Source of the DNA: Malacoraja senta
Lineage: Eukaryota
Assembly (NCBI GenBank): GCA_038087875.1
Contig: CM075990.1
Coordinates: 8,744,001-8,808,000 of the forward strand
Reading direction: 5' to 3'
DNA: 64,000 nt
Shown: positions 37,527-63,589 of the stretch, in pieces
Layout: each line of letters begins with the position of its first letter
How positions within the stretch are numbered: the stretch's first letter is position 1
Translations under genes and position numbers: made by a program
The notes under the pieces: generated by a model
Database searches by the model: none
The model's input: the letters and a program-made list of their open reading frames with translations, nothing else
What the model was told of the DNA's origin: nothing

Positions 37527-37726
37527 NNNNNNNNNNNNNNNNNNNNNNNNNNNNNNNNNNNNNNNNNNNNNNNNNNNNNNNNNNNNNNNNNNNNNNNNNN
37601 NNNNNNNNNNNNNNNNNNNNNNNNNNNNNNNNNNNNNNNNNNNNNNNNNNNNNNNNNNNNNNNNNNNNNNNNNNNNNNNNNNNNNNNNNNNNNNNNNNNN
37701 NNNNNNNNNNNNNNNNNNNNNNNNNN
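37527..37726. other. Assembly gap (200 N)
   Basis: Run of exactly 200 N. Confidence 1.
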
Positions 37727-38142
37727 AAAGAAAAGATTGAAAGAGAGAAGAAAGTGAAGGAAAAAGTGCAAGTGTAGAAAAGTGTAGAAAATGTAACAAC
37801 AAACAAAAAAAAAAAAAGGACGAGGACCCTATGAAAGCGAAATTAAAGACAAAAAAAAAAAAGGAGTTAAGAAATAGGCCCTAAGAAAAGAAAAGAGAGA
37901 GAGAAAAAAAGAAAAACAAATGTTTTTTTTTTTTGAGCATCACGTAAATAGGACATACCAACTCTTCAACTATCATCCCCCCTTACCCGACCTCAATTTT
38001 TTATTTTTTTAAAGTACTTTTGCACCCTATGTTTGTAATAATTCTATAAATGCAGACCACGTCAGGTGGAAGTGATCTGGTTTACCTGCTAGGAGGAGTC
38101 TTATCTCTTCAAGGTGTAGTGTTTCAAACATATTTGAAATCC
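37727..38142 (-). mobile_element. 5'-truncated copy of the L1-clade LINE at 60452-63096
   Basis: Reverse complement of ~62590-62985 (ISNMFETLHLEEIRLLLAGKPDHFHL... plus 3' UTR); runs into the gap. Confidence 0.9.
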
Positions 38143-38379
38143 TAAAATTTAAGATTAAGTAAAATAAAAAAAATTCTGCTCTTACCTTTCCAATAAAAAG
38201 TAAGCAATATTATTCAAATGAATGGGCCACAATTGCCAGAACTGTCAGCTGAAGAACAACATAATCTGTATTAACTCTCCAAAGATGCTCTCTAATCTCC
38301 AGAGTATTCTCAGCAATTTTCTGACGTTGTTTATGTCATGTCAGTCAAGCTCACAGCCTTAATCTGCTCCAAATATAAG

Positions 38380-56379: not shown

Positions 56380-57224
56380 TAGACTTAGACTTAGATTCCT
56401 TTATTGTCATTCAGACCTTTCGGTCTGAACGAAATTTCGTTGCCTGCAGTCATACATATAATAATAAATAACAAAACACACAATAAACACAAATTAACAT
56501 CCACCACAGTGAGTTCACCAGGCACCTCCTCACTGTGATGGAGGCAAAAGTCTTAAAGTCTCTGTCTCTTCCCTCTTTGTTCTCCCTCTGCGCTGAGGCG
56601 ATCCAGGCTTCTGACGTTGTCACCCCGCCGGATGATGGTAAGTCAGTCCCTCGGCTGAATCCGTGCTCCGTCCGCGATGGGCCGGTTCAAACTCCGCGGC
56701 CCGGGGTGGTCGAAGCTGCCGAAGCTGCCGCCCTCCAGTCCAGCGGACGCAGCTGTAGTTGCGGGAGCCCCAGAAAAACAGGTCACCCACCTGTGACCTG
56801 CGCGCTCCCGACGATGTCGTCCACCGGGCCCGCGGCCGAGCCTCCGGATTCAGGTCGCCACCAGTGTCCTCGGTCGCCACCGCCGGAACGCCACCGCAGC
56901 CCCGAAGCCGGCCAGCCCCGCGCTGGTAAGTCCTGGCTCTGCCTCCGGAGCCTCGAGGTCGGTCGGTCGCAGTTGGAGTTGGAGGCCGGCAGCTCCGCCA
57001 TTTTGGCCTCAGCGCAGACGGAGGCAGAGAAGGGGGATACGACAAGAAAAAGTCGCATTCCCCCGAAGGAAGAGACAAAAGTCATGTTTCACCCCCCCCC
57101 CCCCCAACACATAACCCAATAAACTAAAATTTAACTAAAACAGGACAAAAAGAAAACAACAAAAAAAGTAAAAGCAGACAGATTGCAGGCGAGCCGCAGC
57201 TGTGCAACAGCGCCGCCACTTCCG
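56380..57224 (-). mobile_element. 845-bp GC-rich non-autonomous non-LTR retroelement
   Basis: TSD gatgct (56374-56379 / 57225-57230); minus strand starts CGGAAGTGGCGGCG and ends with a GAAA-tetraloop hairpin, AATAAA and a (tctaag)n tail; no recognisable protein. Confidence 0.75.
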
Positions 57225-57710
57225 GATGCTGCCTGTCTTGTTGAGTCTTATTGTCTATAACTCATTTCCACCTGGTCCCGAGCTAACAATGGACCTTTCC
57301 CTTTATCATCGTTACTTTTTTGCATATCTACATCATTGTTTTACTTCGGAGTCACGTGAGTGACTACGTGAATAGAAGGCCGTCAGCCCGCATGCGCGTC
57401 ATTACGTCTAGCGCATTGCGCAACGGCTGACTGGGAGGCGCGCTGCTCCTTCCAGCGGTAAGTTTAAACCTACAGGTAAGTTTCAAGACTTATTTGTAGG
57501 TTCTGCTTTTTGTGTTGCAGGAAGCTCTTTACAGAGTTTGCCTGCTGAATTTCGGGGCGACGTCCGGACGGGCCGCGGGGAATCCGGTTATGGACCATGG
57601 GGAATCGCGGTCCGCACAGCGGAAGTGCGGGTAGCCGGCGGACGTCGGGTTCGCTACCTAAGTCACTGACAATGGGGTTAGCGGCTCCTAGGCTCCTAGG
57701 TCAGCGGCTC

Positions 57711-57915
57711 CTATGGTTCCCCACAATGGGGGTAAATCCAGCAGTAAGCCGGTCTCGCAACCCGAGTCACTGACAGTGCGGTCAGCGACTCCCAGACCGC
57801 TATGGTGCCCCAGAAAGGGGGTAAAACCAGCAGTAAGCCGGTCTCGCAACCCGAGTCGCTGACAGTGCGGTCAGCGGCTCCTAGACCGCTATGGTGCCCC
57901 AGAAATGGGTCAAAC
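57711..57915 (+). repeat. 89-bp tandem repeat (~2.3 copies) inside the DIRS element
   Basis: ctatggt recurs at 57711, 57800 and 57889 with near-identical intervening sequence. Confidence 0.9.
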
Positions 57916-58928
57916 CACAAGTAAGTCGTTCAGGCCTTAGGACTCGGGTGAGTCGGGCCAGGAGGGTTCCCCTCCTTCAATGGGTGCGTCTACGGATGCC
58001 TAAACCCACATGCAGCACCTGATGGAGAGGTTGCTCCACAATAATCCTCCAAAGGAGGGAGTTATCAGCGCGGGTCTCCTCGGGGGCCCGTGGCAGCGGC
58101 AGCGGCACCTGTTTCGGGGCTGCACAATGTCTCCCTCTCTGAGGAGGGGCGCATTCAGGGTCAGTTTCAGCTCAGAGCAAAAATCCTGATATAGGTCTGT
58201 AGGAGGGGCCATGTCAGCGCAGGTATCCTCAGTGGCCTGCGGCAGCACCTGTTTTCAGGGCTGCCTACGAATCCCCTTCTCTGTGGAGGGGAGTGCTAGG
58301 AAATACTCGCTAGTGAAGGGGTTACTGCCGGAAGAATTGGTTCCAGCCGTTGGCAGAAAACCCGGAAGGGGCCAGAGTTCCCCTCACGCTACAAGTGCCG
58401 GCAGTCAACAGCGCTATCAGGGTAGACATTGGAAGGAAATGAAACCAGACGCCGAATCTTCTCTTCAGGTAAGACTTATCCAACAGGTATACCTGGATGA
58501 GGAAGCAAAGCTGTCGGACTGATCAAGGTACCGACGACGAACAAAGCTTCATCGTATCGGCGACGACACACCCCACGCCTCATCGGCAGTAAGCAGTTCA
58601 CTGAAGCTGGTGGCAGCTTGAAAGCTGGGCAGAGGTCTTTCAGGCCTAGGTCCAAGCCGGTCTCAGGAAATATGGAATCCACATACACTACCATTCCTAC
58701 TCTCCAATCAAGGACGAGAATAGAACCCACATCAGGGGCCTTTGGGCTTACCATAAGACCACCGGTAACCATGGAGGTAGGTGGGTCTGGTTCTTCCGAA
58801 ACATGGAGTAAGTGGACCATTTACAAGTTGGGAATATTTACACTTGGTTTGTACAAATGAGAATGATAACATGTGATTGCATTATTATTGCACAGTATAC
58901 AAGGGTACCAAGTATGGTTTGGAATTGG

Positions 58929-59214
58929 GGCCAGAGTTGTCTTTCGAGGCAGGCTCAGTATTACGGCCAGGATTGCCCTCAGAGACAAGCTCAGAAATAT
59001 GGCCAGAGTTGTCTTTCGAGGCAGGCTCAGTATTATGGCCAGGATTACCTTTCGAGACAGGCTCGGAAATAAGGCCAGAGTTGTCTTTCGAGGCAGGCTC
59101 AGAATTGGCCAGAGTTGTCTTTCAAGACAGGCTCAGTATTATGGCCAGGATTACCTTTCGAGACAGGCTCGGGTATCTGGCCAGAGTTGCCGTTCGAGGC
59201 AGGCACGGCATTAT
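58929..59214 (+). repeat. 36-bp minisatellite (8 units, alternating A/B variants) inside the DIRS pol region
   Basis: Units start ggccag at 58929, 58965, 59001, 59037, 59073, 59107, 59143 and 59179. Confidence 0.92.
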
Positions 59215-60451
59215 GGCAGGCGTGGCCTGTTCATTGTGAAAGATGGAGGATGTCGGTTCATAATTGATTTAACTAGCTTGTGCAACATAGACTTTTCAGT
59301 ATATGGAACTTCGTGACTAAGATGCATACTATTCAGGTCCCATTCACAGGGATCACCGGAGACATTTGAAATGTATCTGGATGGGGCAATGATAACAGTT
59401 AATGCGTTGCAAATGGGCAAACTTCAGCTCCTAGGTCATCTATCAAATTACTAAACCAGTGCTTGGACTGCTCAGAGCTCTAAAACACTTGTTATGGCTT
59501 AGCTGGATGATATTCTAAACACTGTGTTTTGCTAAAATCAACTGTTTCAGCCGCAACTATATTTGAGAAATTGAGGTCCCTCATCCATCCAACTAGAGTT
59601 ATTGATTATTCGGATTTACCTTTAACTATTAATTTATCTGTGACTCCGCCCTGGGGCAAGAGATTGGAATCAATAGAAGCCTGTAACTACCTTGTTATCA
59701 AGCAGTCTTCTAACCATCAAGTGTAATTGGCAATATAGCAGCTGTGTTTCAGCTGTGTAATTGGGCCTTTGCATTATCAGAACTTACAACGTGCAAAGTA
59801 GTAACCTCTCAAGTGCCATATAGGTCATTGTTAACATACCTATGCTATTACCAGCTGAAGCTACCTAAGTCACAATGGTGGACAAACTATATTCAGCATT
59901 GCTCCAGTAGTTTTGGTCAATTAATCTTCAGTATATTAGAAACTGATGCTAGTGCTCAAAGATGGTAAATTACGAATGCCATCTCTAGTCACAGAGGCGG
60001 ATGGGATTTGCATGAATTACCAATTGTTCAGTTATTGGTATCAACTACCTATAGACACTAGGTGCATACTATGGGTTAAAGGGTTATTGTGCGAATATGC
60101 ATAAACTGCATGCTCAGTTCCAAATTGATACACTGTGGTGGTGGCATATATTAGTCACATGGGTGCAATCAAGTCAAAGTATCCTGTCATATTATAGTTT
60201 CCCCCGGAAGAGAGGGGTTACTATTATTATTATTTGTTCATTTATCAGCATCAGCATGTTTTAAATCTATGTCATGTCTGTATGCATTATGAATGTTTCC
60301 CTTATCTGTGGTCAACTGATGCAGTCGTGCTTGTGTGGACTCGTTTTTCCATGGCATGAAATCACAGAGCTTTAAAATCTTCAAGTAGTCACTCACGTGA
60401 CTTCGAAGTAAAATAGATTAAACGAGAACTTACCAGTTAAACGAGAACTTA

Positions 60452-62704
60452 CTACCTGATACATTAGCGGAATCAACGATTACATTAATACCTAAGAAAA
60501 ATAAAGACTTAGAAGAACCTGGTTCATATAGAGCTATAGCATTGTTAAACACAGATCAAAAAATATTAGCGAAAACATTAGCTAGAAGATTAAGTAAATA
60601 CATTAGTAAATTAATAAACCCAGATCAGACGGGGTTTATCCCTAAGAGATACTCATCTAACAATATGAGACGTCTACTCAACATAATGCACTCACACAAA
60701 TCTGAAGATCAAGAATTATCAATTATTTCGCTGGATGCTGAAAAAGCATTTGATCAAGTAGAATGGAATTATATGGACAAAGTATTACAAAAATTTCAAC
60801 TGGGGGAGAATTTTATTCTATGGATCAAGTTACTATATAACAAACCTACAGCTAGAATACTAACTAATAACATATTATCCTCGAAATTCCAACTATCAAG
60901 GGGAAATAGACAAGGATGCTCATTATCACCACAGCTGTTTGCTCTCATTATTGAACCGCTAGCAGAAAAAATTAGAATACACCCTGATATCCATGGATAT
61001 AATACGAAAGACTCATATAATAAAATATCTTTATACGCGGATGATATATTACTGTACATTACAAAACCTCAAATCACTATACCAAATATATTAAATTTAA
61101 TTGAAGACTTTGGATCTTTTTCTGGATATAGAATAAATTGGAATAAAAGTGAAATTATGTCAATAAAACCGAAAGATTCAACACATCTTTTAAAATTCCC
61201 TTTTAAAATAGCTACAGAAAAATTTAAATACTTGGGAATCGAAATTACCAGATCATATCAAGGTATGTTTAGGGCAAATTTTGACCCCTTACTTAATAAA
61301 TTAAACACACTAATTAAATTCTGGAAAACGCTCCCGATGTCTTTAATAGGCCGAATAAACGCAATAAAAATGATCTTTTTACCACAAATTTTATACCTAT
61401 TTCAATCAATTCCTATATATTTACCAAAGAAGTTTAAAAAAAAACTCGACTCAGATATCACTAATTTTATATGGAACTATAAATCACATAGAATACAAAA
61501 AACTCATCTGAATAAACCTAAAGTATTAGGGGGTTTAGCACTACCTAATTTTATGTATTATTATTGGTCAGTAAATATTAAAAATATGATTCAACTGATG
61601 GATAACTCCGCCCAGCAAGTGGACTGGATTGTAATGGAGAAAGAGGATTGCTCCTCTAGAAACATTGGAGCGATCCTCCTCTCTCCAATGAAACTGAATA
61701 ACATAAATTATAATAAGAACCCAATTATTCATAGTACAATCCGAATTTGGAAACAAATAAAACAAAATTTAAAATTAAGAAATTTATCACTTTTATTACC
61801 TATAGTCAATAACCCTTCGTTTAATCCTTCTATTATAGATAAAGCTTATACACAATGGGATAGATTAGGAATTAAAACGCTTGGTGACTTGTATGAAACT
61901 GGAAAATTACTTTCATTTCAACAATTACAAATAAAATATAAACTCGGAAATAATCAATATTTTAAATATTTTCAAATATGTGACTATTTGAAAAAATATA
62001 CAAAAGATCATTATAATAACCCAGTAGATGTATTGGACGAGGCAATGCAGATAAAAGCGGAATCAGCAAACTTAATATCTTATTTGTATAATATTATCTT
62101 AAATGTACAAATACCACCTACGGAGGGTATCAGAAGAGACTGGGAACAAGAGTTAGCTATTAAAATTTCAAAGGAAAGTTGGAATGAATACTTATTAAAC
62201 GTGCATAAATGCTCGATTAATGTAAGACACACTTTAATACAATTTAAAATTTTACATAGATTATATTATTCGAAAACTAAAATTCATAAAATTTTCCCAA
62301 ATGTATCATCTATTTGTGATAAATGTCAATCCCAAGAAGCTACTATAGCGCACTCATTCGTTTTCTGTACTAAAATTCAAAAATTTTGGAATGAAATTTT
62401 TGAAATCTTTACAAAGTTATTTAAAACAAGACTGATACCCAAAGCAGAATGGATTATCTTCGGTATAACGGAAGATGGTCCAGAACTAAATGTGTTTCAA
62501 AAGAAACTAATGGACTATGGGTTAATAATAGGAAAAAAGCTAATTCTAAAATTTTGGAAGAAGGCTCCAATACCAACTATAAATATGTGGATTTCAAATA
62601 TGTTTGAAACATTACACCTAGAAGAGATAAGACTCCTCCTAGCAGGTAAACCAGATCACTTCCACCTGATGTGGTCTGCATTTATAGAATTATTACAAAC
62701 ATAG
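60452..62704 (+). CDS. L1-clade ORF2 fragment: reverse transcriptase + C-terminal CCHC region (no start codon, endonuclease missing)
   Basis: DQTGFI, SLDAEKAFD, RQGCSLSP, LYADD, INWNKS, KYLGI, CDKCQSQEATIAHSFVFC; no stops over ~750 codons. Confidence 0.9.
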   Translation, partial: LPDTLAESTITLIPKKNKDLEEPGSYRAIALLNTDQKILAKTLARRLSKYISKLINPDQTGFIPKRYSSNNMRRLLNIMHSHKSEDQELSIISLDAEKAFDQVEWNYMDKVLQKFQLGENFILWIKLLYNKPTARILTNNILSSKFQLSRGNRQGCSLSPQLFALIIEPLAEKIRIHPDIHGYNTKDSYNKISLYADDILLYITKPQITIPNILNLIEDFGSFSGYRINWNKSEIMSIKPKDSTHLLKFPFKIATEKFKYLGIEITRSYQGMFRANFDPLLNKLNTLIKFWKTLPMSLIGRINAIKMIFLPQILYLFQSIPIYLPKKFKKKLDSDITNFIWNYKSHRIQKTHLNKPKVLGGLALPNFMYYYWSVNIKNMIQLMDNSAQQVDWIVMEKEDCSSRNIGAILLSPMKLNNINYNKNPIIHSTIRIWKQIKQNLKLRNLSLLLPIVNNPSFNPSIIDKAYTQWDRLGIKTLGDLYETGKLLSFQQLQIKYKLGNNQYFKYFQICDYLKKYTKDHYNNPVDVLDEAMQIKAESANLISYLYNIILNVQIPPTEGIRRDWEQELAIKISKESWNEYLLNVHKCSINVRHTLIQFKILHRLYYSKTKIHKIFPNVSSICDKCQSQEATIAHSFVFCTKIQKFWNEIFEIFTKLFKTRLIPKAEWIIFGITEDGPELNVFQKKLMDYGLIIGKKLILKFWKKAPIPTINMWISNMFETLHLEEIRLLLAGKPDHFHLMWSAFIELLQT

Positions 62705-63096
62705 GGTGCAAAAGTACTTAAAAAAAAAAAAAAAAAAATTCAGGTCAGGGGGGATGATAGTTGAAGAGTTCGTATGTCCCATTTACGTAATGCTCATAAA
62801 AATATTTGTTTCTCTATTTTTCCTCTTTCTCTCTCTCTTTCTTTCCTAGGGTCTATTTCTTAACTCTTTTTCTTTTGTTTTTAATTTTGCTCTTATAGGG
62901 TCTTCGTCCTTTTTTGTTGTCACATTTCCTACACTTTCACTTTTTCCTTCACTTTCTTCTTTCTTTCAATCTTTTCCTTTTCTAGTGTAAAAAATAAATG
63001 GAGTACATTAATTGTAAGAAGATATAAATGACGAGTACTAATGTATGTGGTTGTAATGTAATGTACTTCTAATAAATAAAATAAAAATAAAAAAAA
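60452..63096 (+). mobile_element. Young 5'-truncated L1-clade LINE with poly(A) tail
   Basis: Starts mid-ORF2 (LPDTLAESTITLIPKKNKD...SYRAIALLNTD), pyrimidine-rich 3' UTR, AATAAA and A-rich tail ending at 63096. Confidence 0.93.
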
Positions 63097-63589
63097 GAAG
63101 TTTGATCTTTATTTTATGAGGAGTTACGATGAGCGATTACGTGCCCTCTGCTCCCAACCCTCGTATCATAAAGATCATCTTGCAGTTCTAGTCATCTCTA
63201 ATCTTACTATGTTGGTTCAACAACCGTTATCTGTGATTTCACACCGCTGCTTTGAAGATTGGCGCGCATGCGGGCTGACGGCCTTCTATTCACGTAATCG
63301 CTCATAAAATAAAGATCAAACTTCAAACTGGTAAGTTCTCATTTAATCTTACTATTCTATTTTTCCCTATATCACTGTTTATATCTCCTGTTTCCATTTC
63401 CCCAGTCTGAAGAAGGGTCTTGATCCAAAATGTCACCTATTCCTTTTCTCCAGAGATGCTGTTTGACCCGCTGAGTTACTCCAGCTTTTTGTGTCTATCT
63501 GCAGAACATCTCCAGCTGCCTCAGCAAGGCCAGCAGCATAATTAAGGATCAGTCTCACCCTGGTCAGTCACTCTTTTCCGCTCTCCCAC

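Follow-up and report, generated by a model that had tools for sequence, protein, structure and literature searches.

The anatomy of DIRS1 retrotransposons is already well described (PMC3266345; PMC8969392), and recombination between a circle junction and a genomic trinucleotide has been described for DIRS1-like elements (PMC3266345). In the replication model, which is not fully proven, an internal complementary region (ICR) templates the missing ends, a circle is closed and a recombinase integrates it (PMC5633606). DIRS elements are present in chondrichthyans (PMC4350176), and Gypsy/DIRS1 elements make up 2.5-3.7% of batoid genomes (bioRxiv 10.64898/2026.10.27.761883); PMC5941688 and PMC8498967 provided general background only. 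Here, we describe an element in a 64,000-nucleotide window of the Malacoraja senta genome (assembly GCA_038087875.1, contig CM075990.1, positions 8,744,001 to 8,808,000; coordinates below are those of the window). It is a real but long-dead, defective DIRS1 copy with inverted terminal repeats (ITRs) as well as an ICR, and its insertion was an old event, not a recent one. It probably belongs to an abundant DIRS1 lineage whose pol was already frameshifted while the lineage was still being copied and which spread in trans, long ago.

The element shares with AcaDIRS1/2 and LgDIRS1/3 its NTT ends, AAT junction, divergent ITR part, right extension, two-part ICR, lack of a target duplication and a reverse transcriptase (RT)/RNase H of the same group, and the conserved ITR of those elements is 31-36 bp, versus 34-37 bp here (PMC3266345). 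The ICR and ITR sizes resemble those of the short-ITR mollusc elements in Table 3 of the same paper. In contrast, our element is shorter (3.36 kb versus 3.97-6.28 kb), its pol is broken, the methyltransferase and tyrosine recombinase are absent, a 36-bp array lies in the RT N-terminus, and the ICR is split by a long interspersed element (LINE). The DIRS-like families of Xenopus likewise are vertebrate ITR/ICR elements, with ITRs of ~120 bp and TTT ends as opposed to the short core and NTT ends found here, and degenerate repeats or open reading frames (ORFs) occur in 36 of the 75 DIRS-like family consensus sequences of X. tropicalis (PMC9210276). TOC1 of Chlamydomonas has been called a non-autonomous DIRS (PMC9940879). 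Like our element, TOC1 and SIRE/VIPER of trypanosomes (PMC6681497) are retroelements of the tyrosine-recombinase kind that are non-coding or defective and are thought to rely on autonomous partners. However, VIPER/SIRE and TOC elements carry split direct repeats (PMC6681497; PMC3266345) instead of ITRs plus an ICR, and our element retains most of a decayed pol and is not reduced to its ends. For cartilaginous fishes, a literature search listed no publication describing a non-autonomous family of the ITR/ICR type, with Repbase and Dfam, a possible home of such families, outside its scope.

The window is animal DNA rich in one repeat resembling a short interspersed element (SINE), presumably of the skate and ray type. 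The element separates the two halves of one such repeat as a 6.02-kb insert (57338-63356), or about 3.36 kb without the LINE, close to the ~3.4 kb of the first-pass annotation. It begins with GTT and finishes with ATT, so the two sides have just the TT core in common. An uninterrupted paralogue of the host repeat elsewhere in the window (18231 to 18026) has an empty site reading CATTG-TT-CT, and comparison of the filled site with it revealed no target duplication beyond the TT core, in agreement with the target (cattgTTctat, no duplication, NTT core) reconstructed previously. Ends of this kind that share only a TT core fit a circle junction recombining with a matching genomic trinucleotide (PMC3266345). 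No second DIRS copy was found within the 64-kb window.

To place the element among its relatives, we used contigs from 4 of 24 listed public sequencing runs (X1, X2, X3 and X7), all of which were aligned at 85% likeness. The organisms of these runs are coded and may be species other than that of the window, and X1, X2 and X7 carry two organism labels. No RNA dataset was among the listed runs, which is evidence neither for nor against expression. Record details were available for the longest 32 of ~390,000 records, for 40 of 492 variant rows and for 15 of ~1,700 joints.

The ITRs contain the perfect 34-bp inverted core reported earlier, which lies within a 45-nt arm pair matching at 93% and has a chance expectation of ~6e-14. 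Mismatches in the divergent ITR part were considered as decay, a reading that we rejected, since such divergence is expected from PMC3266345. The ICR (60380-60438 plus 63097-63144) is complementary to both element ends. It had been described as rebuilding the circle junction, and both this complementarity and the AAT junction stand, but the string quoted for it is a join of the termini that matches other family copies and not this one. The full junction form was found in those copies as a joint from 63354 to 57339 in at least 4, 1, 1 and 17 contigs of X1, X2, X3 and X7, respectively, which may be ICRs, tandem copies or circles. The ICR of the present copy differs from the ends by 3 substitutions, a 4-nt loss next to the 3-bp junction and a 13-nt indel, and a 5'-truncated LINE (60439/60453-63096) splits it in two. 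Therefore, the cis signals of this copy are recognisable but, contrary to the earlier claim, not intact. The ITRs with conserved and divergent parts, the ICR, the NTT ends, the absence of a target duplication and the RT/RNase H together support its identity as an ITR/ICR-type DIRS1 copy placed by recombinase-type integration.

Word-based protein searches with the broken frames matched 0 of 245 and 0 of 73 candidates, and Pfam found no family in five of the six stop-read-through frames of 57500-60380 and one irrelevant match (E 0.13) in the other. A full phmmer search with one stop-read-through frame gave five matches, four of them DIRS-type pol pieces; the fifth, P0004, is an unrelated coiled-coil protein and was dropped. 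One DIRS-type pol piece led to 404 longer relatives, at least 120 of which were examined, and P0008, one of these pol relatives, had RVT_1, weak Dam and Phage_integrase matches. P0003 led to three distant metagenome loci, which were set aside. Aligned across its breaks, the pol region was 46-48% identical to P0006 and P0007 over residues 110-464, with a score of 276 against 32-33 for four control stretches, and judged by this similarity the RT/RNase H appears to belong to the DIRS group.

As the first-pass annotation had noted, RT and RNase H survive as frameshifted, partly deleted fragments, with shifts at about 59441, 59483, 59829, 59863-59872, 60035 and 60131 among others, and the catalytic codon reads stop-L-D-D, with a stop at 59500 in place of the tyrosine. 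Anchor spacing was compared with 120 of 125 proteins (P0008, P0120, P0122, P0123 and P0004 were left out). Intact spacing was common to at least 103 of 116-120 relatives in 14 of 15 intervals, whereas over the 16 anchors this copy was a net 118 nt short. A pol that is dead next to 116-120 intact relatives of nearly invariant spacing counts in favor of a defective lineage. Homology to pol ends within RNase H, at position 60187 and residue 464 of 644, which leaves 192 bp up to the ICR (~200 bp in the annotation). Neither the methyltransferase domain nor the tyrosine recombinase ORF of an autonomous DIRS1 was found. Near the 3' end, the pol tail and two tyrosine recombinase proteins gave alignment scores that did not exceed those of shuffles; elsewhere they beat four shuffles by 2-5 points at most, and the reverse strand scored similarly, so the recombinase indeed seems to be essentially deleted. 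The loss of the methyltransferase and the 36-bp array had both gone unmentioned. The array leaves two frames open, and its positions 59127 and 59174 were covered by 20-42 contigs per run in X1, X2 and X7; no source of the 36-bp unit was found elsewhere in the element. A joint from 58631 to 58994 in at least 1, 1 and 6 contigs of these runs suggests variants lacking 362 nt. Additionally, X7 contigs have 35 nt in place of 66 at 59731-59798 (depth 578), a further pol deletion variant. Three distant gag-region proteins, their profile and the Atlas yielded no match to the presumed gag region.

Table 1. Features of the DIRS1 copy, the nested LINE and the host repeat, in window coordinates
Feature	Coordinates	Strand	Basis or remark
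Host SINE-like repeat, left part	57281..57338	+	Matched at 82% by paralogue 18231-18170, which is uninterrupted
Left terminus: GTT start, divergent ITR part, conserved ITR core (57365-57398)	57338..57401	+	Inverted-repeat comparison; layout as in PMC3266345
Presumed gag region, broken, with 89-bp tandem repeats (57646-57931)	57500..58770	+	Assigned by position only
pol start, residues 1-54 of intact relative P0007	58771..58929	+	47% identity over 47 aligned codons; score 52, without shuffle control
36-bp tandem array, 8.3 units, replacing pol residues ~55-109	58922..59217	+	Repeat search and pol alignment
RT plus the larger part of RNase H (pol residues 110-464 of 644)	59239..60187	+	Broken by 11-12 frameshifts and 9 stops; net loss of 118 nt over the anchors
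3' non-coding stretch	60188..60379	+	End of RNase H, methyltransferase and recombinase missing before 60188
Left ICR with AAT circular junction (60412-60414)	60380..60414	+	32/34 complementary to left end (60380-60413)
Right ICR, first part; 4 nt absent beside junction	60415..60438	+	23/24 complementary to right end, plus 4-nt gap
14-nt copy of 60420-60433 at 5' junction of LINE	60439..60452	+	Sequence
Nested 5'-truncated L1-type LINE, sense, open ORF2 remainder, A-rich tail	60453..63096	+	760-aa open frame 60422-62704
Right ICR, second part; 13 nt longer than matching right terminus	63097..63144	+	Hairpin with right end, z -6.15; zero substitutions versus right terminus
Right terminus, comprising the conserved ITR core (63263-63296), a divergent ITR part, the right extension and an ATT end	63260..63356	+	
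Host SINE-like repeat, right part	63357..63500	+	63388-63498, 84% match to paralogue 18141-18026

Relatives of the element were abundant in three of the runs. X1, X2 and X7 covered the whole element body, and as many as 88 contigs lay over a single listed position. X3 covered the flanking repeat, the LINE and the terminal bins and almost none of the body, which we do not read as absence. The 21 listed body records differed from this copy by a mean of 10.0% (4.8-12.9%), and at 19 of the 20 listed body variants at least 93% of the X1 depth had the other letter, i.e., the variant was nearly private to this copy. Seven of the 32 listed records lie in the RT/RNase H region, and in six of them the span takes in an anchor interval that carries a lesion; we excluded X7 record 32 from the count, since it contains no complete lesion-bearing interval. 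By hand count, all six had too few gap letters or insertions for their pol to be intact. In X1, record 6 had at most 1 insertion where an intact pol needs 2, record 7 had 3 gaps where 7 are needed, and record 8 had 2 where 6 are needed; in X7, record 29 had 2 gaps (3 or more needed), record 30 had 3 (8 needed) and record 31 had none (5 needed). The count takes "gaps" as gap letters, which the record lengths support, and its outcome was unchanged when the one in-frame 3-nt loss was ignored. Records 29, 30 and 31 of X7 overlap over 53 nt and represent more than two alleles, which for a sample of one diploid animal would make at least some of them paralogues. Inactivating lesions are therefore common to several copies, as seen in 6/6 contigs for small lesions only and in a biased sample.

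Since these small lesions are common to relatives, the frameshifted lineage probably multiplied in trans, and this part of the earlier proposal of a non-autonomous derivative held up, although its recent timing did not. Additionally, this copy has a 2-nt insertion in each of its ITRs that is missing from 73%, 68% and 62% of the depth at 63287 in X1, X2 and X7, respectively; its presence in both ITRs is explained by one replication round after the change, and such a pair is what a round that copied it should leave. In the history that we propose, a defective master would have been transcribed, and a helper element with compatible ends would have supplied Gag, RT/RNase H and tyrosine recombinase. 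The ICR would then have templated the ends and closed the circle, and the ATT circle junction would have recombined with a GTT inside a SINE. After insertion, the copy would have gathered private substitutions and indels, two of them in paired cis sequences, and the LINE would have entered the ICR.

Several points weigh against this history. The 32 records were picked from ~390,000 by length at 85% likeness, which favors relatives sharing the lesions, and intact copies, which would break into short pieces, may be under-represented among them. Among the 32 listed, none bridges the methyltransferase/recombinase breakpoint (60187-60203), the 59-nt deletion or the 37-nt deletion. No autonomous helper with the same termini was found in the sequences covered, and the terminal patterns had 0 matches in viral and metagenome contigs. 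The relatives could be paralogues made by DNA duplication, and the nearest of them may be closer than 10%. X1 contains 65% of the sampled words, and the non-DIRS part of the stretch is 53%, which means that no less than a quarter of the DIRS 31-mers must be in X1, a share that would fit a copy within roughly 4-5% of the family sequence. Young copies may also exist in the window's own genome, as contigs drop rare variants and the run species may differ.

The likeliest alternative is in-place decay of an ordinary autonomous DIRS1 that was intact when it inserted, in which case every lesion, the recombinase deletion among them, would be private to this copy. The many private substitutions and several private indels (58042/3, 58506, 59105 and 59931) agree with it, and two indels in ~140 nt of paired cis sequence imply that deletions were frequent after insertion. 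The sharing seen among listed relatives covers small lesions and not the large deletions, and the alignment of X2 record 14 ends at 60203, 54 of its letters being unaligned at one side (which side is ambiguous). Nevertheless, the small pol lesions persist in 6/6 informative relatives, of which three overlap within a single sample, and a net 118-nt loss with 11-12 frameshifts in 950 nt is heavy compared with 3% cis substitution. We therefore regard decay in place as unlikely.

A second alternative, which we find more improbable still, is that the lesion-sharing paralogues arose by passive segmental or tandem DNA duplication of a dead copy rather than by retrotransposition in trans. The short contigs reveal no flanks, and none of the 24 loose-end rows listed of ~6,800 lies at the termini. 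However, this copy has precise NTT ends inside a SINE and the 2-nt variant in both ITRs, and the relatives comprise dozens of distinct contigs per position in three runs under two organism labels.

The age of the insertion was estimated from the paired cis sequences. In a model where the ends are copied from the ICR (PMC5633606), the two are expected to agree when the element inserts, and differences between them arose afterwards. By our own tally, ~4 of 129 paired sites differ (3.1%, 95% range 0.8-7.9%), plus two indels. The perfect 34-bp core was rejected as a sign of youth, since at this divergence a perfect 34-mer has a probability of 0.32. With the shark mutation rate of 7e-10 per site per generation (95% 1.4-14.1e-10; PMC10587355), ~1.6% per copy corresponds to about 20 million generations, with a few million as the minimum; since the rate is that of another species, the estimate gives no more than the order of magnitude. 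Termini identical to the ICR together with near-identical sister copies, which would indicate recent activity, were not found in the runs surveyed, and none of the listed records is a near-identical piece of this locus. Given the paired-site divergence and indels, the ~10% distance of the relatives and the later LINE in the ICR, the recent movement proposed in the first-pass annotation is unsupported. The least credible reading is that annotation taken whole, in which a defective derivative whose cis signals are intact made a recent move in trans: it could draw on the perfect core, the lesions common to relatives and the chance that the window's own species lies outside the runs and holds young sister copies, but it conflicts with the split ICR and with the 3-4 substitutions and two indels (4 nt and 13 nt) of the paired cis sequence, which under the ICR-template model post-date insertion (PMC5633606), and with the distance to the listed relatives.

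The nested LINE has a 760-aa frame with RVT_1 (E 6.9e-40) and zf-RVT (E 0.0013) matches, and we take it to be of the L1 type from the look of its ORF2. It inserted later than the DIRS element, as it breaks the ICR and puts its A-rich end before the right terminus, and it should have ended the mobility of this copy. The insertion made no target duplication and lost 1 nt of the ICR (junction 63096/63097), and the 14-nt templated copy of the upstream ICR at its 5' junction looks as if it came from end-joining repair. A second LINE 3' fragment (37727-38151, minus strand), 83% like 62580-62979, lies beside a 200-N gap (37527-37726). Upstream of the DIRS element, a young-looking 0.85-kb insert in a SINE (56380-57226, minus strand) carries a short tail of tandem repeats at the 3' end and has a target duplication of 5-6 bp. 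Contigs of X3 are 98-99.5% matches to the middle of this insert, which may be a short non-autonomous LINE derivative.

Terminal and ICR bins (63088-63333 and 60136-60438) were deeper than the body in the aligned runs, most strongly in X7, where the summed depth of bin 63088-63333 was 2.1 million compared with 11,000-197,000 in body bins; in X3, a junction contig had a depth of 94 with the body almost absent. We rejected a reading of summed depth as copy number. The deep terminal bins also reach the edges of SINE or LINE sequence, and the same excess would be produced by sister families that have their ends in common.

One old copy does not settle spread in trans, and DIRS elements are common in vertebrates and non-autonomous tyrosine-recombinase retroelements already known. 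If true, a lineage spreading with dead genes would reveal which cis sequences are sufficient and would mean that DIRS proteins work in trans in a vertebrate. More tentatively, and with considerable doubt, we suggest that a high-copy, recombinase-less, fully frameshifted ITR/ICR-type DIRS1 lineage might have spread through the genomes of cartilaginous fishes in trans, with selection keeping only its ends and ICR while its pol decayed between rounds, and that the excess of terminal over body depth may mark shorter, terminus-only DIRS parasites. Such a recombinase-less lineage, if true, would be the DIRS1 counterpart of LARD and TRIM elements and a natural map of the cis signals needed by the as yet unproven replication model.

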